Positions 36,196-57,400 of a DNA stretch of 64,000 nucleotides are shown here, one piece after another. The translations under genes were made by a program, and so were the position numbers. Position 1 is the first letter of the stretch. Each line of letters begins with the position of its first letter. Under the pieces are notes generated by a model that searched no databases, was not told the origin of the DNA, and saw only the letters and a list, made by a program, of their open reading frames with translations. The DNA is from an uncultured Anaerolineales bacterium (GTDB lineage Bacteria; Chloroflexota; Anaerolineae; B4-G1), in the NCBI GenBank assembly GCA_964542755.1, contig CAZIWL010000004.1, positions 20,916 through 84,915 on the forward strand, read 5' to 3'.

Positions 36196-36288
36196 CGTAT
36201 CCTCCTGGTCCTGGTGTCTCAGAACGGGTGCCACAGGTCCGTCCAGTTGACTGTTCGGGCTCCCGTTGGCCAACGCGACCACGTAGGC

Positions 36289-41478: not shown

Positions 41479-41487
41479 CGGGATTGG

Positions 41488-41496
41488 ATTATACCA
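41488..41496 (-). promoter_or_regulatory. extended -10 element TGGTATAAT located 9 nt upstream of the dnaE ATG (leaderless or near-leaderless transcript)
   Basis: Reverse complement of 41488-41496 reads TGGTATAAT. Only a weak -35 (CTAGAA) is present, and there is no room for an RBS. Confidence 0.4.
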
Positions 41497-41683
41497 TACT
41501 GATTGAAGATTTCTAGTTGCTGGGAGCGACAGTCGACCTGGAGGTTGACTCCCCGGCACCCGGCGTAGGGGGCGGTTGGATGCACAAAGGAGGAATCGGC
41601 GCGGCGGGGGTGTGAGTAATGGGGATAGCCGCCGGGGGCGATTCTCGATAGAACACGCCCCCGGCTGGGCTCAACGGTGGGAC

Positions 41684-44503
41684 TCAGTCCCTTGACACCA
41701 GAGGTAGGAAGATCTCGTGGGCCCACGGCTCGACGGATGTGATGACATCGTCCGGAAGCGACGCGAGGCCCTCCGCGTCAGTAACGGTCAGTGTGAACGT
41801 GAGCACTGTCGGTGCTGCCGGAGCTCTGAACGTGGTCGTCATCGCGGTCTCGGCGTCCAGAGGGACAGCAGGGCCTCCGATCTGCGCCCAAAGATACGAG
41901 AGCGGGAGGTGTCCATCAGGATCGGAGCTGGCGGAGCCATCAAGAGTGCCGATGCCTCTCACGCCTACCGTCAGATCGGGCCCAGCAGCCGCGATCGGCC
42001 TTTGGTTGGTGACCGAGAAGGGATGTGTGGAAGTGATGGCACCGCAGGCATTGACTGCGGACACACTGATCGTCTGGAGACCCGCCGTCGTCCAAGTAAC
42101 CACCACCGTGTCCGTGAGGCCCGATGTGTGGGTTGTCGTGTTGAGTGACACGCCGGCGCTGCCGCTCCACGTGTAGGTGATGGGCTGCTGCGACGCCAGC
42201 GGGCTCACCGTGGCGGTCAACCGTGTCGACGAGCGAAGGGCAGGGGGATCCGGGCCCGCGATCTCAACACTTCTCGGGGCGATGCAGTCCGTTAGGCCTC
42301 CCAGTCTGGCGATGAAGATGTCATACTCGCCGCGATTGACATCTTGATAGGCGTTGAACGTCGGAAAGTCGGTGGACCGGGTACCGCCGGTGACGTAGAC
42401 GTCGCCATTGGAATCGAAGGCAATGCCCAGAGCGGTGTCGGCGCCGGTGCCTCCGAGGTAGGTCCCGAAGACCATCGTACCAGTCGGGTCGAACTTTGCC
42501 ACGACGGGATCGCCAGGTCCGTAGTAAGCGAGGTCCACCTCCGGCGCGACCCCGCCCTTGAAGGTTGCTTGGAGGGGGTCCACCGTGGGGAAATTGGTGG
42601 ATCCTGAGCCGCCGGTAACGAAAACGTGGCTCGCTCCGTCGGTGAGGATCCCGCGGAAAGCATCGTTGCCGTCTCCGCCGACGAGTCGGCTGTAGATGAG
42701 GCTGACCGGATCGGTCTCCAGCGCCACCAAGAAGGCATCGAAGTCCCCTCCTCCGTGGGCGGGGCTGCCAGGCGTGGTCGGGAAGTCGCTGGACTCGGTA
42801 CCTCCGGTCCAAAAGACGCGTCCCCCGTCCTCAACGGACACGCCGCCGCTGGTGTCCGAATCCGTGCCACCGAAGTAACTGGCGAAGAGGAGCTGGGCGG
42901 CACCTGGCTGCGCGGGATCGAGCTTGGCGAGATAGAGATCGATGCCGCCCGCATTCGAGGCCTGAAGCGGGTTCTTCGTTGGAAGATTGCTGGAATGCGT
43001 TCGGCCTGCAAAGTAAACGATCCCACTGTCCACGTCTAGCGCCAGACCCTCCTCCGTAGCGGAGCCGCCGAAGCACGTGGAATAGACGAGTGAATCTGTA
43101 CCCGATGCTGTTGTGTCCAGGATCGAAACCGCGGCGTCGACGCCATTGCCGCAGCTTTGATAGGCATCCGGTGTCGTGGGGAAATCGGATGACTGCGTGT
43201 GGCCCACAGCGTAAAGGAGGCCGTTGCGAACGACGCCCTGCGCAAACTCGTCGAAGCTGTTGCCAGCAAGGTATGTCGCATACTCGACGGCGCCCGCGGC
43301 GTCGAGCTGGAAGACCATGCCATTGTAGGTGTCGCCGGGGGCGGTGGACTGGTAAGCTCCTGCGGTCGTCGGAAAGTCATCAGAGAATGTGTAGCCGACG
43401 ACGTAGGCTTTCCCTGCAGCGTCGACGTCGATCCAGGTTGGGTTGTCGAAGTCACTCCCACCGACATAGGTATGATAGACCATCTGATGGAGTCCGGTCA
43501 AGGAGGGGTCGAGCTTGGTCACGAAAGCATCCGAGGTCTCGTAGTCGCCAAGGGCACCGGCAAGGCGTGATGACGGGAAGCTGGCAGCATCCGACACGCC
43601 GGTCACATAGACGTTATCATCTGCATCGACACCGATGCCGCAGCCCTCCTCGCTTCCGCTCCCGCCGACGTAGGTACTGTAGTCTAGGGTGGGATCGATG
43701 ATCAGCGGGTGTTCGTTGTCGTACCTCCCGACGGCGAACTTGATCCCACCGCCTCGATTTCGAACGTATCGGATGTCGACGAACCGTCGTTCGCCGCCCG
43801 CGTCTTGCCAGGCTACGGGCTGCCGCTCCACAAGAGGTGACCTGTCAGGTTCGCCGTCGGGCGTGATGAGGAGCTCGCCGCCGCGCAGGCTGACATCTGA
43901 GGCTCCATCGTAGTGCCATGAGATGGAATCGGGGTTTCCGCCTGGAGCCACCTCGAAGGTTCCTTTCAAGACCCCCGTACGGCCCGTGAAGACGAGATCT
44001 ATGTCTTCGTAAAGGTTCTCGTAGGCCAGGCCGGCGTAGGTCGGGATGCCGAGGTACCAGGCGTCCGGATCGTTCCCGAAGATGTAGTTGACCACTCCAG
44101 GGAGTGCATTCCGACCCACAACGCGGACGCGCTCATTTGCACCCTCGAAGCGCAGCTGGATGGTGGTTCTCTTTGCGGACTCGGACGGCTCGGCTTTCAG
44201 CCCGTTCATGGCTGCACTCAGCAAGTCTGCCGCGCGCCGAGGAAGGCGGAGCGGGAGAACGATCTCATTGCGGGAGAAGTAGAGACGATGGGATGCCTCG
44301 AGCGTGCCGAAGAGGACGTCGGATGCATTCTGTCCCGCGTTTGGGACGAAGACCATCGCCGGTTCGGCTGAGACGCCCTCCAGGGAGGCACTCGAGCGGT
44401 TCTCGGGCAGGGCATCACGGTCGGCGCTCAGCCCCGAGCAGGCGGCCAGAAGACTCAGCATCAAGACGAAGTTGGGTAAGAGGCCCAGGGGTGGGCGGTT
44501 CAT
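41684..44503 (-). CDS. SBBP-repeat beta-propeller lipoprotein with C-terminal PKD/Ig-like domains and the C-terminal IFLPLVSRD tag
   Basis: Signal peptide with lipobox LLAAC. Repeated SDFPTT / SSNLPT / TDFPT beta-propeller blades. Tandem Ig/PKD-like C-terminal domains. It ends EPWAHEIFLPLVSRD. Confidence 0.8.
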   Translation of the reverse strand: MNRPPLGLLPNFVLMLSLLAACSGLSADRDALPENRSSASLEGVSAEPAMVFVPNAGQNASDVLFGTLEASHRLYFSRNEIVLPLRLPRRAADLLSAAMNGLKAEPSESAKRTTIQLRFEGANERVRVVGRNALPGVVNYIFGNDPDAWYLGIPTYAGLAYENLYEDIDLVFTGRTGVLKGTFEVAPGGNPDSISWHYDGASDVSLRGGELLITPDGEPDRSPLVERQPVAWQDAGGERRFVDIRYVRNRGGGIKFAVGRYDNEHPLIIDPTLDYSTYVGGSGSEEGCGIGVDADDNVYVTGVSDAASFPSSRLAGALGDYETSDAFVTKLDPSLTGLHQMVYHTYVGGSDFDNPTWIDVDAAGKAYVVGYTFSDDFPTTAGAYQSTAPGDTYNGMVFQLDAAGAVEYATYLAGNSFDEFAQGVVRNGLLYAVGHTQSSDFPTTPDAYQSCGNGVDAAVSILDTTASGTDSLVYSTCFGGSATEEGLALDVDSGIVYFAGRTHSSNLPTKNPLQASNAGGIDLYLAKLDPAQPGAAQLLFASYFGGTDSDTSGGVSVEDGGRVFWTGGTESSDFPTTPGSPAHGGGDFDAFLVALETDPVSLIYSRLVGGDGNDAFRGILTDGASHVFVTGGSGSTNFPTVDPLQATFKGGVAPEVDLAYYGPGDPVVAKFDPTGTMVFGTYLGGTGADTALGIAFDSNGDVYVTGGTRSTDFPTFNAYQDVNRGEYDIFIARLGGLTDCIAPRSVEIAGPDPPALRSSTRLTATVSPLASQQPITYTWSGSAGVSLNTTTHTSGLTDTVVVTWTTAGLQTISVSAVNACGAITSTHPFSVTNQRPIAAAGPDLTVGVRGIGTLDGSASSDPDGHLPLSYLWAQIGGPAVPLDAETAMTTTFRAPAAPTVLTFTLTVTDAEGLASLPDDVITSVEPWAHEIFLPLVSRD

Positions 44504-44542
44504 TGTATCCTCCTCTCGTTGTCGTAGTGGTCCGACGGGTTC

Positions 44543-45850
44543 CTAGATATGCGGGAGTGAGCCGAGATTCTCCTTGGATAGGGGTGGTCGGTAGGTGAAG
44601 AGCTGTGTGCCGACGACGAAGCATGCGAGGGCGAAGAGCAGGAGCACTGCTGAGGGGCGAAGGACATCGCCAATCGTCCCGCCGTAGAATATCAGGGCGT
44701 TCAGCGCGTCCAAGGCCCAAGCGATAGGTGAGATATGGCCCAGCGTACGCATCCAAGAAGGCACGAAGGCCAGCGGCCACCAAGCACCTCCCAGTGGTGC
44801 GAGCACCATGTACGCGGAGGTGGCAAGACTGCTGGCCTGTTGCGGTGACTGCGCCACCGCCCCCAGCACCAGGGCCAGGGATGCGATGGCCAGGACGTAT
44901 GCCGTGCCAACGATCAACGCACCGAGAGGGGCGGTTCCAAGGTTTGCTCCAAGCAATCCGCCAAAGAGCAGCAGAACAGCGAACTGAAGGATTCCCAGGA
45001 AGCAGGTCGCGAGTAGCTTGCCTCCCAGCAAGTGCGCCCTGTTCACCGGCATCGTGCCGATGCGGGGCAGGATGCCGACCCAACGTTCCTCGGCCAGGGA
45101 CTGCGCCATACCCAGGATGCTTACCATGACAAACATAACGACGATACTGGGCGTCGAGAGCTTGAAGCCGTTTTCGAGGACCTCGGCACCCATGATTTGG
45201 GCCTGGCTCCGTTGGTCAGACGCGGCTGTCATCCGGACCATCGGAGCGCGTCCGAACGCTGCGTCGACGTGGGCCCGCCGGGCTGCTGTGAAGGAAGGTC
45301 CAGTTTCGATCTCCAGCGACTCGGCCGCCTGGACGCTCAGACGGGTAGCCAGGATGGGGCCGCCAATGGTGGCGACGGCGCTCTCCAGCGCGACATACAC
45401 GATCTCGGACGCTGCCGAGGACCCGCGGGTCTCTAAGACGACGGACGTGTCCTGTCCGCCGACCAGCGAGGCCTCGAAATCACGTGGGATACGCACGATG
45501 GCGAACGTGATGTCATCGAGCAGTCGGTGGCGGGCGAGCGAGGGCGACAAAGAGAGGGTACCGACATCGAGTCCGCAGCCTTCGTCGCTATGGCCGCAGC
45601 CTGGGCAGAGCAAGAGCGTTGTGTTGGCGTCCCGGAGGGCGGCCAGAAGGGCCCTGGACGTAGAGGTTCCATCCTCGTCTAAGACGTCCACACGGATCGT
45701 GGCCGGGACGAGGCGCGCCACACCCTGGGCGCCCACGCCGGCCAAGTATATGATCACCATGGGCAGGACGAGGAGCAGGAGCCAGTTTTGCTTCTCCCGC
45801 AACGTCATCTGAAGCTCGTTTCTGGCAACTACCCAGATCTTGAACATCAC
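44543..45850 (-). CDS. ABC-2 type transporter permease
   Basis: N-terminal TM helix plus a large extracytoplasmic loop, then 5 C-terminal TM helices; the ABC-2 family pattern. Confidence 0.75.
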   Translation of the reverse strand: MMFKIWVVARNELQMTLREKQNWLLLLVLPMVIIYLAGVGAQGVARLVPATIRVDVLDEDGTSTSRALLAALRDANTTLLLCPGCGHSDEGCGLDVGTLSLSPSLARHRLLDDITFAIVRIPRDFEASLVGGQDTSVVLETRGSSAASEIVYVALESAVATIGGPILATRLSVQAAESLEIETGPSFTAARRAHVDAAFGRAPMVRMTAASDQRSQAQIMGAEVLENGFKLSTPSIVVMFVMVSILGMAQSLAEERWVGILPRIGTMPVNRAHLLGGKLLATCFLGILQFAVLLLFGGLLGANLGTAPLGALIVGTAYVLAIASLALVLGAVAQSPQQASSLATSAYMVLAPLGGAWWPLAFVPSWMRTLGHISPIAWALDALNALIFYGGTIGDVLRPSAVLLLFALACFVVGTQLFTYRPPLSKENLGSLPHI

Positions 45851-45867
45851 CTATCCGTATTCCAGTC

Positions 45868-47160
45868 CTAGAGGAACGTGGTGCGGCGCCTCAGGAGCAT
45901 GCCGCCGACGAGGAAGGACAAGGATGCCATGGCGAGTAGGATCGACAGGTGTGGAAGCAGGCTGGCTGGGCTGCCACCGTTGGCGGCTTTCAGGAATCCA
46001 TCCATCGCCCAGTACTGGAAGGTCAGTTTCGAGGCGGTATCAAGTGGTCTCGGCAGCAACGAGACAGGGAGGAAGATGCCGCCGAGTAAGCCGCTCAGCA
46101 AGACGACGGCGCGGCCGTAGTTCGCCGCCTGCACATAGGAGTTGGCGAGTCCCGCGATGGTCACTCCAAGGCCTGTTGCCGAGGCCACAGTTGCCCCTGT
46201 CAGGAGCACGAGGCTCAGCCCACACACGGATGCGCCGCCGGGCGAGCCTCCCTGCCATCGCTCCCACAGGGCCACTCCGCCTATCATGGCGACCATCTGC
46301 ACGGTGCCGTTCAGGAAGGTGCCCAACGTTTTGCCTCCCAGGACGACGCCGGGCCATGTCGGCGTCACTTGCATTCTCTGCAGGGTCCAGGAAGCTTCCT
46401 CTTCCAAGAGCGAGGCGCTGCCCATAAGGGCTGTGAGACCCGTGAAGGATATGCCGAGCGCAGCTGCCAGATAGTGCGTCAGGCGTACCTGCGGTGCCGG
46501 GGGCCCGACCAGTAGACGCTTGATCTTGACCGGGTTCGATTCTGGCGAGGCGCCCTTGAAGGCTACCTCTGCGACGAACTCGTCCAACACACCCTCCCTC
46601 AGGCGTGCCCGTGAGTGGGGGTGCTGGGCGAGCCCTTCGACGGTTGCGTAGACGGCGGCCTCGGCGGTCCGTAGTCTCTGCCCCAAGGCCTCGATCATGC
46701 ATGCGAACGCCTCGCCACGGAAGTCGTAGGTGTCGTTGAGGTAGATCTCCATTGGGCTCCGTCCGGTGCTCCACGATGCTGAGAAGTCGGGCGGGATCAA
46801 GACTGCAGCCACAAGTCCTTCTTGCCGCACCAGTTGCCGCGCCTCGCGCTCAGAGCTAATGCGGCGGACGTCGAGAAGGTCGAATGGTTCGCTGTGGCTC
46901 ACAGCCGGTTCCGACGGATCAGCATGGAGGGCTGCGACGATCAGGTCACCGAAGTTGCCCCATTCACCTCCTTGGTCTGAGTTGACTACCCCAACGGGTA
47001 TGCGGGGGTTTGGAATGCCCCGGCTGAGGAACAGGTCCCCGAAAGCAAGATCGATGAGAAGAGTCACCAGCAGGGGCGCAGCGATGGTCAGACACAGAAC
47101 TGCAGGATCGGTGAACCGCAGTGCCACGTCCTTCCAGGCAATGAGGAGTAGCTTTCTCAC
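45868..47160 (-). CDS. ABC-2 type transporter permease (paralog)
   Basis: Same architecture as the downstream permease (N-terminal TM, large loop, C-terminal TM bundle). It overlaps the ATPase gene by 4 nt. Confidence 0.75.
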   Translation of the reverse strand: MRKLLLIAWKDVALRFTDPAVLCLTIAAPLLVTLLIDLAFGDLFLSRGIPNPRIPVGVVNSDQGGEWGNFGDLIVAALHADPSEPAVSHSEPFDLLDVRRISSEREARQLVRQEGLVAAVLIPPDFSASWSTGRSPMEIYLNDTYDFRGEAFACMIEALGQRLRTAEAAVYATVEGLAQHPHSRARLREGVLDEFVAEVAFKGASPESNPVKIKRLLVGPPAPQVRLTHYLAAALGISFTGLTALMGSASLLEEEASWTLQRMQVTPTWPGVVLGGKTLGTFLNGTVQMVAMIGGVALWERWQGGSPGGASVCGLSLVLLTGATVASATGLGVTIAGLANSYVQAANYGRAVVLLSGLLGGIFLPVSLLPRPLDTASKLTFQYWAMDGFLKAANGGSPASLLPHLSILLAMASLSFLVGGMLLRRRTTFL

Positions 47161-48140
47161 TGAGATGCTTCCTCCAGCGTCTCACCGGTAAGCTGCAGAA
47201 AGACAGATTCCAGGCTGGGCCGCTGGACCGTCAATGCGTCGATTGTCAGCCCTGTGGCCCTCACGGCTTCAAGGATAGTCGTCAGTCGGTCGGCAGCGCG
47301 GTGGACGGAGACGAGCAGTGAGCCGTCGGCGGCTTGGACCTGAGTGACATCGGGCAGACGCCTCAGGGCACCCATGGTCGAGTCAGATACGGGGGTTGGC
47401 TGGACGTGTAGGCGCACAGAGTCGGCCACGCTTGAGGACCGGACCAGCTGCTCCGGGGTGTCGAGAGCGATGATGCGTCCGCGATGCATGATGCCGACCC
47501 GCTGGCTGAGCTCCTGTGCCTCGTCCATGCGGTGGGTCGTGTAGAGGATCGTTGTGCCATAGTTCTGGTTCAATCCGACGACGAGGTTGAGTATCCTTCG
47601 TCGGCTGTCCGGATCGAGACCCAACGTGGGCTCGTCTAGGTAGGCGATCTGGGGCTCGTGGAGCACACCCGCCGCGACGTTGAGTCGCCTCTTCATGCCA
47701 TTGGAATAGTGCGCGACCCTGTCGTCCGCCCGTTCGGAGAGTCCAACGGTCTCCAGTGCTGCCTCTATGGCTTCTCGGAGCGCTTTGCCCCGCAAGCCGT
47801 AGAGCAGGCCGAAGTACCTGAGGTTCTGCCTCCCGGTGAGGCGGGTGTAGAGGGCCAATTCCTCAGGAACCACGCCGACGAGACGTTTGACGGCCATTGG
47901 ATCACGCGAGACGCTGTGACCCGCGACGAACGCGTCACCTGCGGTCGGACGGAGAAGGCCGCAGAGCAGGGCGATCAGCGTGGTCTTCCCTGCGCCATTG
48001 GGGCCGAGAAGGCTCAGAATCTCACCCTGTCGAACTACGAGCGAGACATCGTTGACGGCCAAACTTCCGTCTGATGCACGGTACTGCTTGGAGAGATGCC
48101 GCACACGGATTATCTCAGTCATCTGGGCTCTCCTGGTCAC
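47157..48140 (-). CDS. ABC transporter ATP-binding protein
   Basis: Walker A GPNGAGKTT, ABC signature LSGGMKRRL-like (YSNGMKRRLNVA), Walker B LDEPTLGLD, H-loop. Confidence 0.9.
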   Translation of the reverse strand: MTRRAQMTEIIRVRHLSKQYRASDGSLAVNDVSLVVRQGEILSLLGPNGAGKTTLIALLCGLLRPTAGDAFVAGHSVSRDPMAVKRLVGVVPEELALYTRLTGRQNLRYFGLLYGLRGKALREAIEAALETVGLSERADDRVAHYSNGMKRRLNVAAGVLHEPQIAYLDEPTLGLDPDSRRRILNLVVGLNQNYGTTILYTTHRMDEAQELSQRVGIMHRGRIIALDTPEQLVRSSSVADSVRLHVQPTPVSDSTMGALRRLPDVTQVQAADGSLLVSVHRAADRLTTILEAVRATGLTIDALTVQRPSLESVFLQLTGETLEEASQ

Positions 48141-49134
48141 CGATCCGCGGCGGCCAGTCTATCTTCGGACAAAAGGGTTGGGCGAGAACGTCCCGGTCGA
48201 TGGCCGCGTTGGGCCAGCGGCTGACGAGTATCCGTCCCTCCGCGCCCAGGGACGGTCGCGGGTCGACCTGGATAGAGAAGTCAACAAACTCATCCCACGA
48301 GCCCGCGAACCTGCGAGGCCAGTCCTGTGCTGATGGATGATCCAGATCGAGGCGGCCCTCCTCACTAAGACGATCATACGCGTCGTGCATCGCCCACGCA
48401 ATGCTCTCAGCGTCAAGAGCCTCCCAACCTAGAAGAAGCGACCCGTGTTTCCCCCACTGTACGCCGATCCAGGGGCGTCCATGGTGTCGGTTTGCATCGG
48501 CGGCCGCGGTCATGGTGGTCAAGAGGTGACCGTGGAAGTAGGCGTAGACGGCCGTCACCTGGAGGCTGGTCTGGTCGTATGCCACCCAGATGACTTCATG
48601 ATCCGATGGCTCACCATCCCCTGGGTAGTCGATGTCGTCCCCCCAGAAAAGATGATAGCCCACGAGCGGGCGAGTTGGATGCAGTACCGCGACAGCGTCC
48701 TCCAGGGGGAAGTACTCGGTCGGAGTGACGAAAAGACGGGGAGTGTAGCGGAGCGCTCGCTCCCGTTGCTCTGCGGAAGGTGCCGCGGGAGGTTCCAGTT
48801 TCAGAAGGTGCCGGTATGTTTCGCTAGCAGCCTGGAGTTGGCCGCGGTTGTGGTGGGCCGCGGCCAGGCTGTTTAGGGCACCGGGATTGGTCAGATCGCG
48901 GCTCTCGCGGGCTGGGGATACGGGCGTTCGCATGCACCCGCCCAGCGACGAAACCGCCAGTACCGCCAGCAGTGCGATCAACCTGGCTCGACAGGGATGA
49001 CTCCGCGTCCCGCAGCGTGGTGCGCCAGCGCCCGTCCGTCCGCGCCGACCGAGCTGTATTTCGCGAGGCTCGTCTTGTTGCCGGGGCGCGATCACGTCTC
49101 GTAGAACCCTTTCCGGCTCCAGTCCTCTTCCCAT
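48115..49134 (-). CDS. hypothetical lipoprotein (start uncertain)
   Basis: Lipobox segment LIALLAVLAVSSLGGC. The track start at 49134 would overlap the radical SAM gene by 43 nt, so the real start is probably further downstream (candidate TTG). No recognised domain. Confidence 0.5.
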   Translation of the reverse strand: MGRGLEPERVLRDVIAPRQQDEPREIQLGRRGRTGAGAPRCGTRSHPCRARLIALLAVLAVSSLGGCMRTPVSPARESRDLTNPGALNSLAAAHHNRGQLQAASETYRHLLKLEPPAAPSAEQRERALRYTPRLFVTPTEYFPLEDAVAVLHPTRPLVGYHLFWGDDIDYPGDGEPSDHEVIWVAYDQTSLQVTAVYAYFHGHLLTTMTAAADANRHHGRPWIGVQWGKHGSLLLGWEALDAESIAWAMHDAYDRLSEEGRLDLDHPSAQDWPRRFAGSWDEFVDFSIQVDPRPSLGAEGRILVSRWPNAAIDRDVLAQPFCPKIDWPPRIGDQESPDD

Positions 49135-50495
49135 GCCTTGTCTGCAAGGGCCTTGTACGACTCTGCGAAGCCGAGCAGTTGATCAAAGTGGTCGTAGTAG
49201 AGGCTGAGGGCCCCGGGATGGGTCGGATGAGCATCGTGCCTTTCTATCAGGTCCCGGGCAACCCATGGAGAGTCGATGATCATACAGGGGCGTAGGTGAT
49301 TGCTGTCGTAGGGCTGTCGTGCCCTGATGTCCTTGAAGAGCGGGCTCTTGAGAGCCGCAAGAAGGGTCGTGTCGCGAACGTTGTCCGTTGCGAAATGGGT
49401 GAAGACGCACGGCTCGATGTCGCCTCGAGCGTTAATGTGAAAGTACCGGCGCCCGCCGGAGATGCACCCTCGGACATACGGCCCATCGTTCCAGAAATCA
49501 ATGATCAACAGGGGCAGGTGGCTGCGTATGTCCCGCAGTGAGCTCCTAAGGAAGTCTCGTTGATCTGGGGAGAGCATGGATGAGAAGTCTCCGGACCCAT
49601 CCACCGGGACGTACATGAAGTAGTAGTTCACCAAGGCACCTTGGTCGACCAAGAACTCCAAGAAGCGGAAAGAAGTGACCTCTTTGAGGTTCTGTCGGGT
49701 GACGGTTACCGAGGTCCCGAAGGGCACCTTCGCTTTTCGCAGGTGCCCGAAAGTGGTCAGGATTCTCTCGAAGACCCCGGATCCTCGCCTCGTGTCGGTG
49801 TTCTGCTGGAAGCCCTCTATGCTGATCAGGACCAGTACGTTTCCCATCTCTGCCAGCCTCTCCGCGGTCTGCGGAGTGATCAAGGTCCCGTTGGTATAGA
49901 TGTGAAAGAAAAAGTGAGGATACCTTTGGATGACGTCCAGCGTGTGCGGATAGAGGAAGGGTTCGCCGCCGCTGAGGACAATCAGAAAGATGCCAAGTTC
50001 CTCACATTCTTTGAGGATTCTATCTAGGAGGCGATGGGAGAGTTCGTCGACTCGATCGTACCCACTGGCGTAGCATCCACGGCATTTCAGATTGCACGCG
50101 TTGGTCGGGCTCAGAACCAGGAGGATCGGGAAATTGGTGATCCCGTGCTCCGCGGTCAGTCGTTTTCGTCGCTCGTGACCCCAGATCCAGCAGTTGTAGA
50201 GAAGCGTCTGGAAGAGCCGCTGCCGACCGTAAGCGGACATAGAGCCCATTGCTCGCTCGAAGAATGCCGCCGCCGGGTGCTCGGGGTTCTCCAGCATCTC
50301 TAGCACGCCAGCGACGAAGCAATTGAGTTCGTCGTGTCGTGAGAAGGATCGAATCAGTCGCAGCAACTCGGTGATATTCCCGCTCCTCGGGACGGCCAGC
50401 TTGCTCAAGATATGGCCGATAGTCTGATGGCTCAGCTTGACGGAGGCGTCTCGGATATCCTTCAGTGGTTGCATCGTTCGCTCCCGAGAGAACAT
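49092..50495 (-). CDS. radical SAM enzyme with a Cys-containing C-terminal auxiliary (SPASM/twitch-like) region, immediately downstream of the ether-lipid genes
   Basis: CX3CX2C in CNLKCRGCY followed by the GGEPFLYP glycine-rich SAM motif. C-terminal Cys residues at CEELG, GCISGG, GDIEPCVF and LRPCMI. An N-terminal extension of about 125 aa lacks the B12-binding signature. Confidence 0.85.
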   Translation of the reverse strand: MFSRERTMQPLKDIRDASVKLSHQTIGHILSKLAVPRSGNITELLRLIRSFSRHDELNCFVAGVLEMLENPEHPAAAFFERAMGSMSAYGRQRLFQTLLYNCWIWGHERRKRLTAEHGITNFPILLVLSPTNACNLKCRGCYASGYDRVDELSHRLLDRILKECEELGIFLIVLSGGEPFLYPHTLDVIQRYPHFFFHIYTNGTLITPQTAERLAEMGNVLVLISIEGFQQNTDTRRGSGVFERILTTFGHLRKAKVPFGTSVTVTRQNLKEVTSFRFLEFLVDQGALVNYYFMYVPVDGSGDFSSMLSPDQRDFLRSSLRDIRSHLPLLIIDFWNDGPYVRGCISGGRRYFHINARGDIEPCVFTHFATDNVRDTTLLAALKSPLFKDIRARQPYDSNHLRPCMIIDSPWVARDLIERHDAHPTHPGALSLYYDHFDQLLGFAESYKALADKAWEEDWSRKGFYET

Positions 50496-50610: not shown

Positions 50611-51375
50611 CTAGGAGCGGCGCCAGTGGATCTGATCGGAGAAGGCGCGCAGGGTGCTTGGCGCCAACGAGCGCTCGATGACTGTCCCGATGACCACCAT
50701 GTCTGCCCCCGCTTCCAACTTCTGTCTCGCAGTTTGCGGATCCCTGATCCCTCCGCCTACCAGGATTGGGAGGCTGACTCGTTCTCTGACAGCAGCAATC
50801 ATAGCGTCCGGCACAGGGTTGGAGGCCCCGCTTCCCGCTTCAAGATAGACGGCCTTCATGCCTAGCTGCTGGGCGGCCAGGGCGTGTACCATGGCGATCT
50901 CGGGCTTGTCCCGCGGGATCGGTTTGACGCCGCTGAAGAACTCGGCGGATGTTATCGTGTCAGACGCGATGAGCAAGTAGGCCGTGGGGATAGACTCAAG
51001 GTTGCATCGGTCGATCCATAGGGCACTTCTGACCTGCTCGCCGATGAGATACTCAGGGTTCCGGCCGCTGACCAGGCTGAGGAGAAGGATGGCATCGAAA
51101 TCTGGAGAGATCTGCGCGGCCGGGCCGGACGCGCCCGGAAAGAGGATCAGTGGGCAATCCACCGACGCACGGATCGTTGCCACTGTCTTGTGAAGCTGGT
51201 CGGTAAATAGAAAGCTACCCCCCACCAGGATGGCATCCGCACCCGCTGCCGCAGCGTGCCGGGCGAAAGCCATGGCGTCATCTCCGGCCTGCTTGTCGGG
51301 GTCGTTGAGGGCCAGGAAGACGGCGCCTTTCTGGGCGATGGCGTCGAGCAGGTACTCGTAGACACTCACAGCCAT
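50611..51375 (-). CDS. geranylgeranylglyceryl-phosphate synthase / PcrB family prenyl-glyceryl-phosphate synthase
   Basis: PcrB/GGGPS TIM-barrel motifs FLALNDPDK, ILVGGS, YLEAGSG and VGGGIRD, aligning with B. subtilis PcrB (LDPNK, IIGGS, YLEYSG, YGGGIKD). Confidence 0.85.
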   Translation of the reverse strand: MAVSVYEYLLDAIAQKGAVFLALNDPDKQAGDDAMAFARHAAAAGADAILVGGSFLFTDQLHKTVATIRASVDCPLILFPGASGPAAQISPDFDAILLLSLVSGRNPEYLIGEQVRSALWIDRCNLESIPTAYLLIASDTITSAEFFSGVKPIPRDKPEIAMVHALAAQQLGMKAVYLEAGSGASNPVPDAMIAAVRERVSLPILVGGGIRDPQTARQKLEAGADMVVIGTVIERSLAPSTLRAFSDQIHWRRS

Positions 51376-52262
51376 CCTCCCAAGTCAATCCCGCGGGAGA
51401 GCCCGATAAGCAGGAAGAGGAAGATGTAGAGGTACATGGCGGCCTTCGTCCAGCGCTGGACGCGGCCGGCGATTGCCGGGGTGCCGAGCGTGAGCCGGGT
51501 TGCCGTCCAGAGGACGAGGATGTTGATGAGCGACGCTCCGACTACGTAGAAGGGGGCGAACGGACCAGGGTAACGCGAGAGATAGGTGACGGGGACGGCC
51601 AATAGGAGGAGCAGTCCTGCCACGCGGCAGGATGACGAGGCGCCAATCAGCATAGGAAGACTGCCGACGCGGGTGGTGCTGTCCCCCGTTAGGTCTTCGA
51701 CATCCTTCACAATCTCGCGGGAAAGGGTGGCCATGAAGATGCACGCGGACCACGGCACGGTGGCCAGGAGATTGTCTTGAGCGAATCCACCGATCATAGC
51801 GTTGTTGGCAGCAAGCGTGGCTATCACGAGGTTACCCAAGAGACCGCTGGATCGCTTGACCTTCCAAGAGTAGAGGAAGAGGAGCATGGCTGCGACGGAG
51901 GCACTGGCGAGCGCCGCCTTGTTGATCGGAAGGAAGAGGATCGGGGCGGTGATCAAGAGGGTTAGGGCGTAGGTGCGCGCGGCCGGGCGAGCGATGAGAC
52001 CGGCTGGAAGAGCACGATCTGGATGGGCGAGTCTGTCCGTGGCGTGGTCGAAGACGTCGTTGAGGGCATAGCCGCCGGCGGCAACGAGCATGGAGCCCGC
52101 GACGGTCAAAGGCACGGAGGTGGGATGCGAGGAACGGCCCATCGCGAGAAGGGAAGAGGCGAGCGCCAGGATCCCCACGCCGAGGCAGTTGAGGGGGCGA
52201 GAGAGCATGATGAGGGGAGGGGCGATGCTACGTATCACGGCGGCGTCCAAGCGAAGGCCCAC
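51366..52262 (-). CDS. UbiA-family prenyltransferase (DGGGP synthase-like)
   Basis: Asp-rich motifs NDVFDHATD (NDxxDxxxD) and KDVEDLTGD. Eight or nine TM helices. It overlaps the GGGPS gene by 10 nt. Confidence 0.85.
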   Translation of the reverse strand: MGLRLDAAVIRSIAPPLIMLSRPLNCLGVGILALASSLLAMGRSSHPTSVPLTVAGSMLVAAGGYALNDVFDHATDRLAHPDRALPAGLIARPAARTYALTLLITAPILFLPINKAALASASVAAMLLFLYSWKVKRSSGLLGNLVIATLAANNAMIGGFAQDNLLATVPWSACIFMATLSREIVKDVEDLTGDSTTRVGSLPMLIGASSSCRVAGLLLLLAVPVTYLSRYPGPFAPFYVVGASLINILVLWTATRLTLGTPAIAGRVQRWTKAAMYLYIFLFLLIGLSRGIDLGGWL

Positions 52263-52720
52263 TGCGCCAGGAGGAGCAGGGAGAGTAGGTGGACGAAGGG
52301 GAAATCCTGCAAGAGCGTCCCGATCGATACCATCTGGCGCATTGTCGAGACCTGACCGGCCCGCAACGCAGACGGGCGTTGACGCGCGGCATATCGGACG
52401 ATCCAGAGCGTCTTGGGGATCACCCAGAGTGTGATGAGCAGGGTGGACAGGGTGCCGGGGTAACTGGCGAAATAGGCCGTGTACACCACGAACTCGGCGA
52501 ACATGTCCATAGCGCGGTCGGTTTGGGGCGAGTCTTGTCCTTGCCTGCGCGCGACGGCGCCGTCAGCGCTGTCGAGAATGAGCGCCATGAAGAGGAGACC
52601 GACGGCGGCCCCCGGTCGATGGAGAAGGATGGTCAGTGCGGAGGCGAAGCACATCCAGCCGCGCAGCCGTGAGATCTCATTTGCCGGCAGCGGAATGAAG
52701 GCGAGGAGTTGGTCGGCCAC
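52235..52720 (-). CDS. CDP-alcohol phosphatidyltransferase family protein (small; start uncertain)
   Basis: The signature DSADGAVARRQG...TDRAMD matches D-x2-DG-x2-AR...D-x3-D with a degenerate middle. The start is placed at GTG 52720 because the upstream part of the track ORF (to 53062) is occupied by the YdjM-like gene. An ATG at 52654 is an alternative start. Confidence 0.6.
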   Translation of the reverse strand: MADQLLAFIPLPANEISRLRGWMCFASALTILLHRPGAAVGLLFMALILDSADGAVARRQGQDSPQTDRAMDMFAEFVVYTAYFASYPGTLSTLLITLWVIPKTLWIVRYAARQRPSALRAGQVSTMRQMVSIGTLLQDFPFVHLLSLLLLAQWAFAWTPP

Positions 52721-52740
52721 CTTCTTGCGCTGACCCGTTG

Positions 52741-53187
52741 CTAGGCTACGGAGATGAGCAAGGATGCTCCGATGACCCCTGCCTCCTGTATGAATCGTAT
52801 CCAGAACTTCCTCCCAAGGGGCTGGTCCGCCGGGTTGCCAAAGTTGATCCTTGTGGGATCCGCGTAGATGAGTCGGAATGGAATACTCACACCGGAGATG
52901 AAGTCCAGAAAGAGGTGCACAGCCACGCAGAGGAGAAAGAGGCTGCCTGTCTGGCGGTGGAGGAGGGTCATGAGCAGTCCCGCAGTGCCATAGATGGTGG
53001 CCCCGAAGAGCCCGTGCATAAAGGTCTGAGATGTCTCGAACCCGTTGACCTGGAGTTTCCATCTCGCGGCGCTCGGCAGATGGTCGAGATCTGGCATCAC
53101 CGAGAAGGCGACGGATGCTGGAAGATAGCCGGAAGGGAAGAATTGGCTCAGTGCAATGCCGACAGCAACGTGGGTTACGATGTTCAC
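52741..53187 (-). CDS. YdjM/DUF457-like membrane-bound metal-dependent hydrolase
   Basis: The N-terminus MNIVTHVAVGIAL...MPDLDHLP is the YdjM family pattern (His/Asp metal ligands in TM-embedded segments). 148 aa. Confidence 0.6.
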   Translation of the reverse strand: MNIVTHVAVGIALSQFFPSGYLPASVAFSVMPDLDHLPSAARWKLQVNGFETSQTFMHGLFGATIYGTAGLLMTLLHRQTGSLFLLCVAVHLFLDFISGVSIPFRLIYADPTRINFGNPADQPLGRKFWIRFIQEAGVIGASLLISVA

Positions 53188-53199
53188 GGGCGATAGGGT

Positions 53200-54339
53200 T
53201 CAGAAAACGTTGAGAACAAATTGAGCAAACCTATCGTGACGACGCATGGCCTGAATCACGCGATCCAGAACGCCAGGAACACTAAGGAGTCGCTGAGCGA
53301 CAGCCTCTCTTTCCAGTTGCCTGCCGATGGCAGCACGGCAGTGACGGTCGAATCGACGGAGTTCCTGGTAGGTGCCTCCATCGCTCCCCAAAGCGTCGTG
53401 AACCACGGCAGCGGCTGTGCGACCGCTCTCAAGAGCGTTGTAGATCCCCCCACCTGTCAAGGGACTCACGAAGAACCCGGCGTCACCGACGATCAACGCG
53501 CCCGGGTAGCTTCTCCGCACTCTTCCCGAGGCGAGAGGCAGCAGTCCACTGGAGGCCCTTCCGATCTGCTCGGCACCAGAGAACCGCGCCGCCAAGTAGC
53601 GGCCGTGGACGAATGTCTCAAAGGCCTTCCTCAGAGACACCCGATCCTTGCGCGCGACGTCAAGACGCAGCCCCACCCCCACGTTGGCCCGGCCGTCGCC
53701 AAGGGGGAAAATCCAGGCATAGCCCGGCAGCGTGGACTGGTTGAAGAAGAACTCCGCACGCCCACGAGATTCCACGCCTTCAAAGTAGGCTCGCCGGGCA
53801 ATGGCCGCGTGTCGCGAACTGGGGCGGTCGGGCTGGAGCCGTCGGGCCAGAGTGGAGGTGGCGCCGTCGGCGATGATTGTGATCCGGGCTCGACGGTCCG
53901 CGGTCTTCCCGTTGGTTGAGCCTCGCACTCCTCGGACGAGGCCGTCCTCCACGATGGGCTGGGTAGCACGAAAGCGCTCAAAACGCGCCCCTTCTTCCAA
54001 AGCCTTCTGCCACAGAATGTGGTCGAGGCGCTGCCGATGCAGGACGTAGCCGTGGCGAGAACGCCCGTTCTTCTGGGGAAACGCGCCCTCATACGTGTGA
54101 CCGGATGGGGATACGCCCAGCACGTGGTGGCAGCTGTAGAGGGCCTCTGTCTGGCCCTCGAGATCGATGTCAAGCTCGGACAGCAGTCGGAGTGTGTTCC
54201 AGCCTATGCCGTCACCGCAGACCTTCGGGCGGGGAAACTCAGCCTGGTCCAGGAGTGTAACCGGAACGCTGTGTCGCGCCAGGACCATGGCCGCCGCGCT
54301 GCCCGCCGGGCCGGCGCCAACAACCAGGACCCCATCCAT
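53200..54339 (-). CDS. geranylgeranyl reductase family FAD-dependent oxidoreductase
   Basis: FAD motif VVGAGPAGSAAA, then KVCGDGIG, and the GGR-family C-terminal motif LIVGDAGFFVSPLTGGGIYNALESG. Confidence 0.85.
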   Translation of the reverse strand: MDGVLVVGAGPAGSAAAMVLARHSVPVTLLDQAEFPRPKVCGDGIGWNTLRLLSELDIDLEGQTEALYSCHHVLGVSPSGHTYEGAFPQKNGRSRHGYVLHRQRLDHILWQKALEEGARFERFRATQPIVEDGLVRGVRGSTNGKTADRRARITIIADGATSTLARRLQPDRPSSRHAAIARRAYFEGVESRGRAEFFFNQSTLPGYAWIFPLGDGRANVGVGLRLDVARKDRVSLRKAFETFVHGRYLAARFSGAEQIGRASSGLLPLASGRVRRSYPGALIVGDAGFFVSPLTGGGIYNALESGRTAAAVVHDALGSDGGTYQELRRFDRHCRAAIGRQLEREAVAQRLLSVPGVLDRVIQAMRRHDRFAQFVLNVF

Positions 54340-54346
54340 GAAGCCA

Positions 54347-54375
54347 TTCTATCATGGGTGCGTGGGGTCGTCAAT
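54347..54375 (-). promoter_or_regulatory. promoter TTGACG-N17-TAGAAT ending 7 nt upstream of the GGR ATG (leaderless mRNA predicted)
   Basis: Minus-strand reading: TTGACG (54375-54370), a 17-nt spacer, TAGAAT (54352-54347), then GGCTTC and ATG at 54339. There is no room for a Shine-Dalgarno sequence. Confidence 0.45.
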
Positions 54376-54490: not shown

Positions 54491-57400
54491 CTACGTTCCC
54501 CGGAGGACGAGGGGCAAGAAAATGGACGGCTCCAGCGTCTCGATGGTGATCGTGTGGGTCTGACTGACGACGCGGCCAATCGCATTCTGCGCGGTTACAG
54601 TGACTACGTGCTCTCCCGGGACGTGCCAAATAGCCTCCAAGCTGTCGCTAAGGCTGTAGCTCCGTCGTACCCGTCCGGGCCACCACTGGTGGGTGGCGCG
54701 CCAGGTGTAGGTGACAGGGACGGTTGCACTGAGGGGCTCGACCATTGCGCGTAGGGTCAGGAACTGGTCGGCGAGGCCGTCGCGGGGACCCTCGATACTC
54801 ACAGCTGCAAGTGGGACAACGGGCGCGACGGGCGTGTATTCTGTGTATTGATTGTCAAAGGGCGTGGGGTCGTGCTCGTCGGCAGTGGCTTGCAGCAGGG
54901 TGGCGATGGTGCCGGCCGTCGTAATGTGCAGGCTGAGGGTCAAGGTGACCGAGTGGCCTTCAGCAATCCGGCCTATGCGACAGGATAGGGTCCCCTTATC
55001 ACGGCTGCACGAGCCCTGGTCGACCCTGAGCGTAGCGAACTCCGAACCTGTGGGCAGCGTAGCGGTTAGCACGACGCCGGACGCATCATCCGGCCCGCGG
55101 TTGCTGATGACGACGGTGTGCGTCAAGAGCTGACCGGCCAAAGGCTGCGGCGGCACATGGCCGGCGCTTACTGTCAGATCAGCCACCGGCGCGACAATCA
55201 TATCGAACACTCGCGCGCGCGCTGAGGAGGGCTCGGCTTCGGAAGCGACCAGTACCGAGACCGGGTTCGTGGTACCCAGGGGCACATCTGGAGGTACCCG
55301 GATACTGAGCAGACTGAGGGTCTCACCATCGTCGTCCAACGAGACCATCGTTGCCCGGGGTCCAGTCAGCCAGCCGTGGGCGTCGCTGATCGTCAGCACG
55401 GCGGTTCGGGCGAGCCCCGTCCAGTCCAAGACGCGGATGACGGCCGAATCCGAGACGCCCCGCGGCACGTAGGTGGGGTCCTCGTCAGGGACGACAGTGA
55501 GCGAGCGGGGCCCCGGGGCCCACGGCTCGCATTCGACGGAGCCGCGGATCTGGTCTCTTGGGTCGGCGGTCTGACCCCACCAATTGCCCGAAGCCGACAC
55601 CGTGACGCCGCCGTCGGCGTTGACGAGCGCGTATCCCGCATTGTCGAGGAAGTCGCTTTCTTCCACGGCGAGGGAAGTCAAGCCACCAAAGAGTGTGACT
55701 CCGTCGTCGCCATTTTCGGCGATGCGGCAATTGTGGATGCCGGGCGGCATCGAGTCAGCGGCGGCGGGCCAGTTCACCGGGGTGTCCCACTCGCGGCGTG
55801 CTTTTTGCTCGGGCCCCACGTCCGCCCAGTCATCGTGCCACGTCTCGAAAGCTATACCGCCACTGGTATTGCCGGAGACGACGAGGTCGACCAGCTTGGG
55901 CTGGACGGCGGCGGCGTAGACGCCGTAGCCCTCATTGCTGCTGATCTGCCCGTCGCGGATGGACAGCGATCCGCGGCTGAGCATCAGGCCGTGCCCCTCG
56001 TTCAGATTGACAGTCAGACGGTGTCCGAGAAAGTTCACGTCGCTGCCGAGGATGCCGCCGAGCGCATTGCCGTGCAGCGTGGTGCTCGACATAGCTAGGG
56101 GACCCGCGCCGTACGCGTATATGCCCCACCCGTCGTTGTGGGAGATGTCGGCCTGGGTGACGTTCACGGCGCTGGCGTAGGCGCGGAGCCCGTCTCCCCG
56201 ATTGTGCTGGACATCGCTGTCGGTGCCCCGCAGGACGAGCCCGGCCCGCTCAAGATCGATGCCGTGGCCCGCGTTCTTGCGAATCTGAACGTCGGTGAGC
56301 TGGAGGTTGCAGTTCTGCAGCCGGATGCCTGGGCCGCCATTCCCCACCACAAGGAAACCCTCCGGCAGCGAGAGCCCTCCAGAGGCAGAGATTCCGCCCA
56401 GGTCGTTGCCCGTGACCCCCTCGAGGGTATCCTTCAGGACGGTAACCGGACCGGTCTGCGCGAAGATACCCCAGCCTCCGTTGTCCCGGACCTGGGTTCC
56501 CCCGCTGACTAGAATCGCGCCGGGGGACGCGTGGAGCCCATTTCCTTGGTTGCCGACGATCCGGTTGTTGGCACCCCTGAGGATCAGCGAGGGGAGCGCA
56601 TCGGGCCGCCAAGGAGCGCCTCCAGCAATCGTTACGCCGCCGCCGAGGTTGTCCTGGACGATGACATCCGTCAGCTCGGTATCGTCGTCGCCCCAAACGA
56701 CGATTCCGGGGCCCCCGTTCCCCTCGACGGTGAACCCGACCGGGAGGGTCAGGTTACGACCGGCGAACAGGCCGCCGCGCTCGTTGTCCCGCAGGGCATC
56801 CATGGCGCCCTCGGCGATGAAGACCGATCCACCCTCGGCGACGATGCCCCAGCCGCCGTTTCCGGAGATTTCGGCCTGGCCGCGGATGGTGACTGAACCG
56901 GGAGCCGCGACGATCCCGCCGCCCCCGTTGTTTGTGATCTGGTTGTCGTCGCCGCCGAGAATCAGCCCCGGCACGACGGCTTTGCCCGCATGACCGGTGA
57001 CCACGACGCCAATGCCGACGCCGCGGTTGTCTCGAACACTAATATCCTCGAGCCGGGTGTCTCGGCCCGACCAGACGACGATACCTGGTCCGCCGTTTCT
57101 CTCAACTACGAACCCTGAGGGCAGGCCGATGCCCGCGGCTGCGTAGAGACCACCTCCTCCATTAGCGGCAACGGTGTAGACTGCATCCTCAGGCACGCTG
57201 ATAGACCCCTCATCTGCCCGGATGCCCCAGCCTCTATTGCCCACGACTTCGGTGGAGGCCTCAAGGGTGACGTTTCCAGACACGGCTCGGATCCCATCGC
57301 CGCCGTTGTTCGCGATGCGATTCTCCTCGCCGCGAAGTAGTAGACCCTTACCGAGCCCCCCTCCGCCGGGACCCACGGTCAGCAGGAGGCCGTCTTCCCC

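Follow-up and report, generated by a model that had tools for sequence, protein, structure and literature searches.

Gene organization of the locus

The window analyzed here is a 64,000-nucleotide stretch of DNA from an uncultured member of the Anaerolineales (assembly GCA_964542755.1, contig CAZIWL010000004.1, positions 20,916 to 84,915). The gene of interest (49092..50495, minus strand; longest open reading frame (ORF), 467 amino acids) encodes a protein of the radical S-adenosylmethionine (SAM) type which, judged by its sequence, belongs to the bacterial membrane-spanning lipid synthase (Mss) family. It is found directly downstream of a GGGPS gene, and the archaeal-type isoprenoid ether-lipid set present in the window comprises GGGPS, a DGGGPS-like UbiA protein and a geranylgeranyl reductase (GGR). 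The genes from position 54339 to 41684 are all encoded on the minus strand and either overlap or are at most 137 bp apart; the lipid genes among them may be co-transcribed.

The first gene of the run (53200..54339, minus strand) specifies a GGR family flavoprotein, recognized by Pfam FAD_binding_3 and GGR_cat and by TIGR02032 (193 bits; cutoff 158.8). It is followed by a single ORF of 275 residues (52235..53062, minus strand) in which a YdjM-like N-terminus is joined to a CDP-alcohol phosphatidyltransferase C-terminus (Pfam CDP-OH_P_transf, residues 127-271). A weak NCBIfam match of this ORF is to archaetidylinositol phosphate synthase, and its product is a candidate head-group transferase. 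In relatives the same region is represented by two gene calls, YdjM (148-152 residues) and a protein of 127-139 residues. The third gene (51366..52262, minus strand) encodes a UbiA-family (Pfam) prenyltransferase, which is DGGGPS-like in that its best PDB match is the DGGGPS structure 6M31 (2e-27), the next being chlorophyll synthase (3e-4). The GGGPS gene (50611..51375, minus strand) stands directly before the radical SAM gene. Its product is of group II and is identified by Pfam PcrB, NF003198 (276 bits; cutoff 247) and TIGR01769 (198 bits; cutoff 161.55); matches to the GGGPS structures 4MM1 and 4JEJ in PDB are at approximately 1e-47 versus 1e-8 for the Bacillus heptaprenyl PcrB. The gap between the GGGPS and radical SAM genes is 115 bp, on the same strand, as had been noted in a preliminary description of this DNA. 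A weak consensus scan revealed no promoter-like or terminator-like site between these two genes; just upstream of the GGR gene there is a match to a sigma-70-like promoter (TTGACG-17-TAGAAT, with TG; 54346..54374, minus strand), which is a weak consensus match only. Neither a Tes gene nor a second lipid radical SAM gene is found in the 64-kb window.

Features of the radical SAM protein

An ENA gene call of 460 residues is 100% identical to the protein, and more than 4000 homologs exist in the databases, from which we conclude that the gene is real. Translation probably starts at Met8 (ATG at 50474), giving a product of 460 residues, because the N-termini of the homologs coincide with this residue and a Shine-Dalgarno-like GGGAG lies 6 nt before the ATG. 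The two signature motifs listed in the preliminary description are present in the 467-residue ORF. These are the CX3CX2C motif (CNLKCRGCY; C134, C138 and C141; 50073..50096, minus strand), read from the sequence as the binding site of the radical SAM [4Fe-4S] cluster, and the SAM-binding motif GGEP (residues 176-179; 49959..49970, minus strand) within GGEPFLYP (176-183). The three cysteines and GGEP are invariant in an alignment of 40 homologs (A1) and in 117 diverse family members.

Pfam analysis of the protein reveals Radical_SAM (residues 129-273; E 9e-23), Fer4_12 and a partial SPASM domain (344-394; E 8e-6), and no match for residues 1-125. A B12-binding domain was not detected by Pfam even at E ≤ 1, in line with the earlier statement that the protein possesses none. 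All NCBIfam models stay below their cutoffs: NirJ2 ranks first with 99.7 bits (cutoff 500), and the AhbD model TIGR04545 scores 90 bits across the core (residues 131-305) only.

The protein was modeled with AlphaFold2 on alignment A1 (mean predicted local distance difference test 87.9; predicted template modeling score 0.89). The model consists of six N-terminal helices (11-117), the radical SAM barrel, a β-hairpin (351-361) and C-terminal helices. The N-terminal domain of approximately 120 residues (50136..50495, minus strand) is all-helical, contains no strands, and is also found in the Mss of Thermotoga; it is presumed to be a lipid-binding cap. A membrane protein was ruled out, there being no hydrophobic stretch (the highest mean Kyte-Doolittle value over 19 residues is 1.2), and the protein is a soluble or peripheral enzyme.

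Nine cysteines are present in total: C59, C102, C134, C138, C141, C164 (in CEELG), C344 (GCISGG), C363 (GDIEPCVF) and C404 (RPCMI). Those of alignment A1 that are invariant are the radical SAM triad together with C344, C363 and C404. Among the 117 diverse members the residues conserved to at least 95% are the triad, GGEP, C344, G358, P362, C363, C404 and a few core residues, with no conserved fourth auxiliary cysteine; the spacing of approximately +210/+229/+270 from the first radical SAM cysteine recurs in most full-length family representatives. The arrangement C344-X13-G358-X4-C363 fits CX9-15GX4C, the hairpin half of the SPASM/twitch fold. This match and the conserved cysteines lead us to assign a twitch-like (half-SPASM) region (49284..49466, minus strand), completed by C404, with one auxiliary cluster held by three cysteine ligands. 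Thus, of the auxiliary cluster suggested earlier on the basis of four C-terminal cysteines, the cluster is supported by the partial SPASM match, whereas the number of conserved cysteines is three. The fourth, C164, had been counted to the C-terminal third, but is located in the radical SAM core; it is conserved in the close subfamily only, is replaced by Asn in Thermotoga, and was rejected as a ligand. The N-terminal domain contains two cysteines, C59 and C102, neither of which is conserved.

Relationship to Mss

BLASTP comparison with the T. maritima MSB8 protein P0431 (AAD35906.1, AGL49750.1; annotated as "AstB/chuR-related protein") gave 38% identity over 431 residues, 297 bits and an E value of 2e-100, the last being pairwise and not database-scaled; at the size of nr, 297 bits are estimated to correspond to about 1e-75. 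AGL49750 is the T. maritima Mss according to a 2026 preprint (10.64898/2026.06.23.733905). This enzyme (locus Tmari_0825) yielded C32 and C33 diabolic acids upon anaerobic expression in E. coli (Sahonero-Canavesi et al. 2022, PMC13159169), and together with T. ethanolicus WP_129545148.1 it is one of two experimentally validated Mss (PMC13159169); our comparison with validated enzymes covers that of T. maritima. With two such members in the family, the term "uncharacterised" used in the preliminary description was too strong. The window protein passes the thresholds applied to Mss homologs in the same study (E ≤ 1e-50, identity ≥ 30%; PMC13159169).

Profile comparison leads to the same placement. 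Alignment of A1 with an alignment of 11 Thermotogota orthologs (A2) using hhalign gave a probability of 100% and E 1e-106 over 446 columns (8-455 versus 1-447), the N-terminal domain included. Identity to the Thermosipho ortholog is 37%. A Thermosipho representative (P0153), found by picking family representatives of thermophile-like amino-acid composition, matches the clade profile at E 1e-113 among 1.84 billion representatives, and a search with this protein reveals a single ortholog throughout the Thermotogota, Thermotoga included. The match is specific, since the radical SAM/SPASM protein encoded beside mss in Thermotoga reaches just 27% identity to the window protein (E 3e-18). In Thermotoga sp. 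Mc24 this neighbor is a gene of 323 codons (L088:4949-5920) immediately upstream of mss and on the same strand. The Thermotoga mss locus also adjoins TetR, pheST and iron-containing alcohol dehydrogenase genes, surroundings which we take to be the TM0820-TM0824 region.

The features held in common with Mss are the N-terminal helical domain, the radical SAM core, the three conserved auxiliary cysteines and the C-terminal helical tail. An anaerobic host is a further likeness, which is probable for the window: a tungsten-type aldehyde:ferredoxin oxidoreductase is encoded there, and this suggests that the host is an anaerobe. The difference lies in the setting, since known mss genes stand alone and their products act on fatty-acyl chains, whereas the window gene is embedded in an operon that also encodes GGR, a head-group transferase, DGGGPS and GGGPS.

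The family diverges continuously; 936 clusters at 50% identity were recovered with E ≤ 1e-30 in the profile search of the 1.84 billion representatives. It includes members from Woesearchaeota and Pacearchaeota, in agreement with the DPANN homologs already reported (PMC13159169), and homologs in Chloroflexi and deltaproteobacteria were noted in the same work. We also observed Mss-family homologs 46-49% identical to Thermosipho Mss (P0361-P0398) in Enterobacterales and Vibrionaceae, the hosts being E. coli, Salmonella, Klebsiella, Edwardsiella and Photobacterium. Some of these are plasmid-borne, and one (P0376) sits on a plasmid of Escherichia albertii.

Comparison with other radical SAM families

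The preliminary description proposed comparison with Tes as well as Mss, and in this comparison the window protein falls with Mss. The A1 profile matches the Tes (GDGT-MAS) structure 7TOL at just E 1.6e-3, and in the radical SAM core only, from which it follows that the protein is not a Tes. The four-domain plan of Tes, with an N-terminal [4Fe-4S] cluster bound by three Cys and a His and a rubredoxin-like Fe site, is not matched either, as the window protein possesses no extra metal-binding domain. Both Tes (MJ0619; PDB 7TOL/7TOM) and the window protein are radical SAM enzymes, and the chemistry proposed for the window protein is that of Tes, in which terminal tail carbons are joined by a C(sp3)-C(sp3) bond by way of an auxiliary [4Fe-4S] cluster. 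The catalytic auxiliary cluster of Tes is likewise ligated by only three Cys, plus a Met. If the operon produces archaeol, the expected substrate of the two enzymes would be the same.

Gms (PF0647, X802_RS00105; Garcia et al. 2024, PMC11214058) shares with the window protein the SPASM/twitch subfamily and an N-terminal extension of 100-120 residues, which is proposed to bind lipid; that of Gms is approximately 100 residues long and carries the annotation COG4001, and that of the window protein is helical and approximately 120 residues long. Gms differs in being a close AhbD homolog (approximately 36% identity, E ~1e-79) with a full SPASM domain and two auxiliary clusters, thus three clusters in all. 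An AhbD score of 90 bits that is confined to the core, together with just three conserved auxiliary cysteines, rules out Gms as the identity of the window protein, which is 29% identical to the Gms-like neighbor in the sister loci considered below. The class-B lipid radical SAM enzymes (GrsA/B, Gmm, Ted, HpnP/R) were excluded because the protein has no N-terminal cobalamin-binding domain.

Among solved structures the best matches are SkfB, SuiB, anSME, ChlB and PqqE, all in the radical SAM/twitch core only. SkfB (PDB 6EFN) aligns with residues 122-375 only and scores 70 bits versus 297 bits for Mss; its N-terminal region binds peptide and its substrate is the precursor of a ribosomally synthesized and post-translationally modified peptide (RiPP), whereas the six-helix N-terminal domain of the window protein is unrelated. 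The RiPP maturases of the SPASM/twitch group (SkfB, SuiB, CteB) were set aside on three grounds: the protein has no RiPP recognition element (RRE), its N-terminus consists of six helices, and no precursor gene accompanies it. For the last point the immediate flanks were checked; the 115-bp upstream gap contains no precursor-peptide ORF and the downstream ORFs overlap.

Conservation of gene order

Eight distinct contigs make up the close Anaerolineae clade (66-73% identity), namely the window, L001, L002, L008, L009, L094, L097 and L098; the window is identical to L095 and L096. In each of the eight the GGGPS gene directly precedes the Mss homolog, with gaps of approximately 10-25 bp in the relatives, and genes for UbiA (DGGGPS) and GGR precede GGGPS wherever the contig reaches that far. 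Downstream content differs within the clade: a second radical SAM gene is present in L001, L002, L094 and partly in L009, and is missing from the window, L008 and L097. That the junction is kept in 8/8 contigs while the downstream genes vary indicates that it has survived local rearrangements.

The radical SAM gene had been placed at the distal end of the lipid cluster; the same-strand run, however, goes on beyond it. The next gene (48115..49134, minus strand) encodes a conserved protein that carries a lipoprotein-type signal (LAVSSLGGC) and is matched by neither Pfam nor NCBIfam. Its longest ORF overlaps the Mss stop codon by 43 nt, and translation probably begins at an internal position. Among sister loci this lipoprotein-like protein measures approximately 290-340 residues and is 51-57% identical (51% versus L001); it is missing in L097. 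Thereafter come the genes of an ABC transporter (44543..48140, minus strand), identified by Pfam as an ATPase (47157-48140) and two ABC-2 permeases (45868-47160 and 44543-45850), and a gene for a DUF7948/SBBP β-propeller/PKD protein (Pfam) of 939 residues (41684-44503, minus strand). The ATPase, both permeases and the DUF7948 protein (41684-48140) are kept downstream in the sister loci.

In the closest outgroup (L172/L173; 53% identity) GGGPS, UbiA and GGR genes are absent. There the homolog has further radical SAM genes and a MoxR/DUF58 pair as neighbors, and that of L172 (2918-4301) is split over two reading frames, which reflects either pseudogenization by a frameshift or a fault in the assembly. 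The Mss homolog is followed at approximately 0-520 bp by a B12-binding radical SAM gene in about 15 loci of Thermodesulfobacteriota (L003/L004:9425-10834, L011, L018, L020-L024, L045, L078, L106, L111, L118, L130, L149 and L157), and in a Pacearchaeota contig (L089:9698-11119) a B12 radical SAM gene is paired with the Mss homolog in convergent orientation. By analogy with the Gms-Gmm pair, these partners could be methylases of membrane-spanning lipids.

A Gms-type gene in sister contigs

The second radical SAM gene of the sister contigs (L001:11449-12735, L002:8151-9482, L094:5185-6588 and, as a partial gene, L009:2711-3259) encodes a radical SAM/SPASM protein and directly follows the Mss homolog, at a distance of 5 bp in L094. 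Its product matches the AhbD model over its full length with E values of 2e-90 to 2e-93 (303-314 bits, below cutoff) and carries an additional 80-95 residues at the N-terminus. Gms has been described as an AhbD homolog with an N-terminal extension of 100 residues forming a lipid pocket, and bacterial gms genes have been reported to cluster with mss or tes (PMC11214058); the latter is the arrangement seen in L001, L002 and L094. The gene is therefore referred to as "Gms-type" here, a designation set by its good fit to the published description of Gms.

The closest named homologs of this protein are from Thermoplasmatota/Euryarchaeota, with 61-68% identity over the full length, and one of them is encoded on a 2.3-Mb Thermoplasmatales contig. 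These relationships point to a gene of archaeal origin that was acquired by the bacterium.

Proposed function

The preliminary description had advanced the radical SAM protein as a candidate enzyme for forming or modifying C-C bonds of lipid tails, and the homology to T. maritima Mss supports this. We would give an even chance to the specific proposal that it couples the tails of the saturated isoprenoid diether made by its own operon, end to end through a C-C bond, the reaction itself being part of that estimate. In the proposed mechanism the ends of two lipid alkyl tails would be joined by a C(sp3)-C(sp3) bond. The [4Fe-4S] cluster at C134/C138/C141 would reductively cleave SAM, held by GGEP, and the resulting 5'-deoxyadenosyl radical would take a hydrogen from a lipid tail at its terminal or sub-terminal carbon, the tail being lodged in a hydrophobic pocket which the N-terminal helical domain and the C-terminal helices create together. 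The first tail radical might then be parked on, or stabilized by, the auxiliary cluster (C344, C363, C404) until the second tail is activated in another turnover of SAM and the bond between the two carbons forms. The substrate would be a saturated diether of the archaeol type supplied by the neighboring enzymes, and the product a macrocyclic diether and/or a tetraether resembling a glycerol dialkyl glycerol tetraether (GDGT). An isoprenoid diether is the most likely substrate because the gene belongs to a tight same-strand run with those for GGR, the head-group transferase, DGGGPS and GGGPS. Chemically, the isopropyl end of a phytanyl chain equals the end of the iso-C15 fatty acid coupled by the Mss of Thermoanaerobacter. 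A Tes-like mechanism employing the auxiliary cluster has been postulated for Mss (PMC13459092), and Mss is indifferent to ester versus ether linkage, with models of the enzyme accommodating di-O-phytanylglycerophosphate in silico (PMC13274423).

At the level of the organism, we tentatively propose that this uncultured Anaerolineae lineage makes isoprenoid membrane-spanning lipids whose tails are coupled by a recruited bacterial Mss instead of Tes. The products could then possibly be macrocyclic archaeol or GDGT-like tetraethers and, in the sister genomes with the Gms-type gene, bridged lipids resembling glycerol monoalkyl glycerol tetraethers (GMGTs). Such a pathway might, with the same reserve, be viewed as a convergent mosaic in which genes of the archaeal GGGPS/DGGGPS/GGR type are combined with Mss from bacteria and Gms from archaea.

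Several observations weigh against an isoprenoid substrate or against the coupling itself. At 38% identity the type of reaction is likely to be conserved but this is not certain, and both validated Mss enzymes act on fatty-acyl chains (PMC13159169). The DGGGPS models are the top NCBIfam matches of the UbiA protein, yet their scores are below the curated cutoffs. No genes for CarS or glycerol-1-phosphate dehydrogenase are present among the ORFs of the 64-kb window, though these may lie elsewhere in the genome, and tblastn of the window revealed no Gms-like gene. Engineered GDGT synthesis was toxic to E. coli (PMC12042123). Finally, the synteny with lipid genes, on which the preliminary description had laid weight, holds in the close Anaerolineae clade, where adjacency to GGGPS is kept in all eight contigs, and fails in the wider family: within 6-8 kb of the homolog, genes for GGGPS, UbiA or GGR are absent from all of approximately 150 loci outside the clade. 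The loci scanned, mainly from Thermodesulfobacteriota with some from Bacillota and DPANN, comprised 76 Thermodesulfobacteriota-type genome loci and 74 metagenome loci, plus those of Pacearchaeota/Woesearchaeota. Since they show no such genes, the isoprenoid link comes from a single clade, and within that clade the non-lipid flanks are collinear too, so that shared ancestry may explain part of the synteny.

These points are taken up most directly by the alternative that the enzyme is a canonical Mss, coupling fatty-acyl or alkyl tails to give membrane-spanning lipids of the diabolic or iso-diabolic acid type, precursors of branched GDGTs (brGDGTs), and that its isoprenoid neighbors represent a loose "membrane lipid" neighborhood or an inherited gene order. 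Fatty acids are the substrates of both validated members, isoprenoid genes are lacking around the solitary homologs of Thermodesulfobacteriota, Thermotogota, Bacillota and DPANN, the Mss homologs of Chloroflexi/Chloroflexota reported earlier were treated as brGDGT-related, and the whole region, non-lipid genes included, is collinear among the Anaerolineae contigs. On this account, however, one would have to explain why the gene is wedged into a packed same-strand run directly after GGGPS in every clade member despite the varying downstream genes, why no fatty-acid or Ger-type ether-lipid gene is found nearby in the window, and why the sister contigs carry a Gms-type gene so closely related to Thermoplasmatota proteins (61-68%). 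We regard a canonical Mss as the less likely reading here, though one deserving of serious consideration.

A paralog of the Mss family that performs some other radical chemistry on a lipid or polyprenyl substrate of the operon, and no tail-to-tail coupling, appears improbable. Cross-linking, cyclization, desaturation, or the modification of a prenylated-glycerol surface anchor exported by the ABC-2 transporter are examples of what such an enzyme might do. The great diversity of the family, with its 936 clusters, and the modest identity to a validated member leave room for such a function, and related radical SAM enzymes of archaeal lipids catalyze many different reactions. Further genes of the run, moreover, encode a lipoprotein, an ABC-2 exporter and a surface-type protein of large size. 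The three-Cys auxiliary cluster would leave an open site, and auxiliary clusters that bind substrate at an open site are known, for example in MoaA. Against this, the architecture is conserved from end to end and all residues that are invariant across the family are common to Mss; we know of no Mss-family member with another activity.

That the protein is a twitch/SPASM enzyme of RiPP, cofactor or heme-type maturation which neighbors the lipid genes by chance is very improbable indeed, for although its top matches are SkfB, SuiB, anSME, ChlB and PqqE among solved structures and NirJ2, AhbD and mycofactocin maturase in NCBIfam, these are core-only, far below the curated cutoffs and a reflection of the apparent lack of a solved Mss structure, the match to validated Mss is far stronger (297 versus 70 bits for SkfB), the N-terminal domain is all-helical with no RRE, and the 115-bp gap upstream is too small for a precursor-peptide gene while the ORFs downstream overlap.

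Implications

The literature searched contained no report of mss inside a GGGPS/DGGGPS/GGR operon or of Mss acting on isoprenoid lipids, and nothing relevant on isoprenoid ether lipids in Anaerolineae. The operon context thus appears to be new, the protein itself being a new addition to a family already known. Isoprenoid GDGTs and GMGTs count as biomarkers of archaea and form the basis of palaeotemperature proxies, and fatty acids are considered to be the building blocks of bacterial tetraethers. The GDGT has been called "an archaeal innovation" by authors who also state that an organism with a hybrid membrane has yet to be found (PMC12042123). The nearest precedent is that of the FCB group and Ca. 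Cloacimonadota (Villanueva et al. 2021, PMC7852524), bacteria which likewise possess archaeal-type GGGPS and DGGGPS and hence the potential for isoprenoid glycerol diethers. No tetraether-forming gene could be assigned to those sets at the time (PMC7852524), whereas the run described here, in an Anaerolineae host, contains an enzyme of a tail-coupling family.

Some bacteria may therefore build "archaeal" membrane-spanning lipids with an enzyme other than that of archaea. Were this the case, there would be a bacterial source of "archaeal" tetraether biomarkers, and Mss would be recruitable to isoprenoid substrates in a route convergent with that of Tes. The locus offers a candidate for isoprenoid tetraether synthesis in bacteria that can be put to the test directly, and it bears, for both lipid biogeochemistry and membrane evolution, on the question of whether bacteria make isoprenoid tetraethers and by which enzyme; its operon could also serve as a compact gene set for lipid engineering. 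Should the substrate prove to be fatty acyl, the gene would still have been placed in a known family and the Anaerolineae flagged as possible producers of membrane-spanning lipids.

Other features of the window

DnaE is encoded at 37837-41559, beyond the DUF7948 gene, and its presence identifies the host as a bacterium. On the opposite side, upstream of the lipid genes, two giant proteins of 1657 and 1356 residues (54491-59464 and 59797-63867, minus strand) contain β-helix/NosD repeats and DUF11; related β-helix genes flank the lipid cluster in L001 and L002 as well. A ketol-acid reductoisomerase (13047-14576, plus strand) carries an additional C-terminal SCP2 domain, which is a lipid-binding domain of the sterol-carrier type, and this fusion is seemingly unusual. 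Two adjoining phosphofructokinase-family paralogs of 352 and 427 residues are encoded at 35224-37572 (minus strand).

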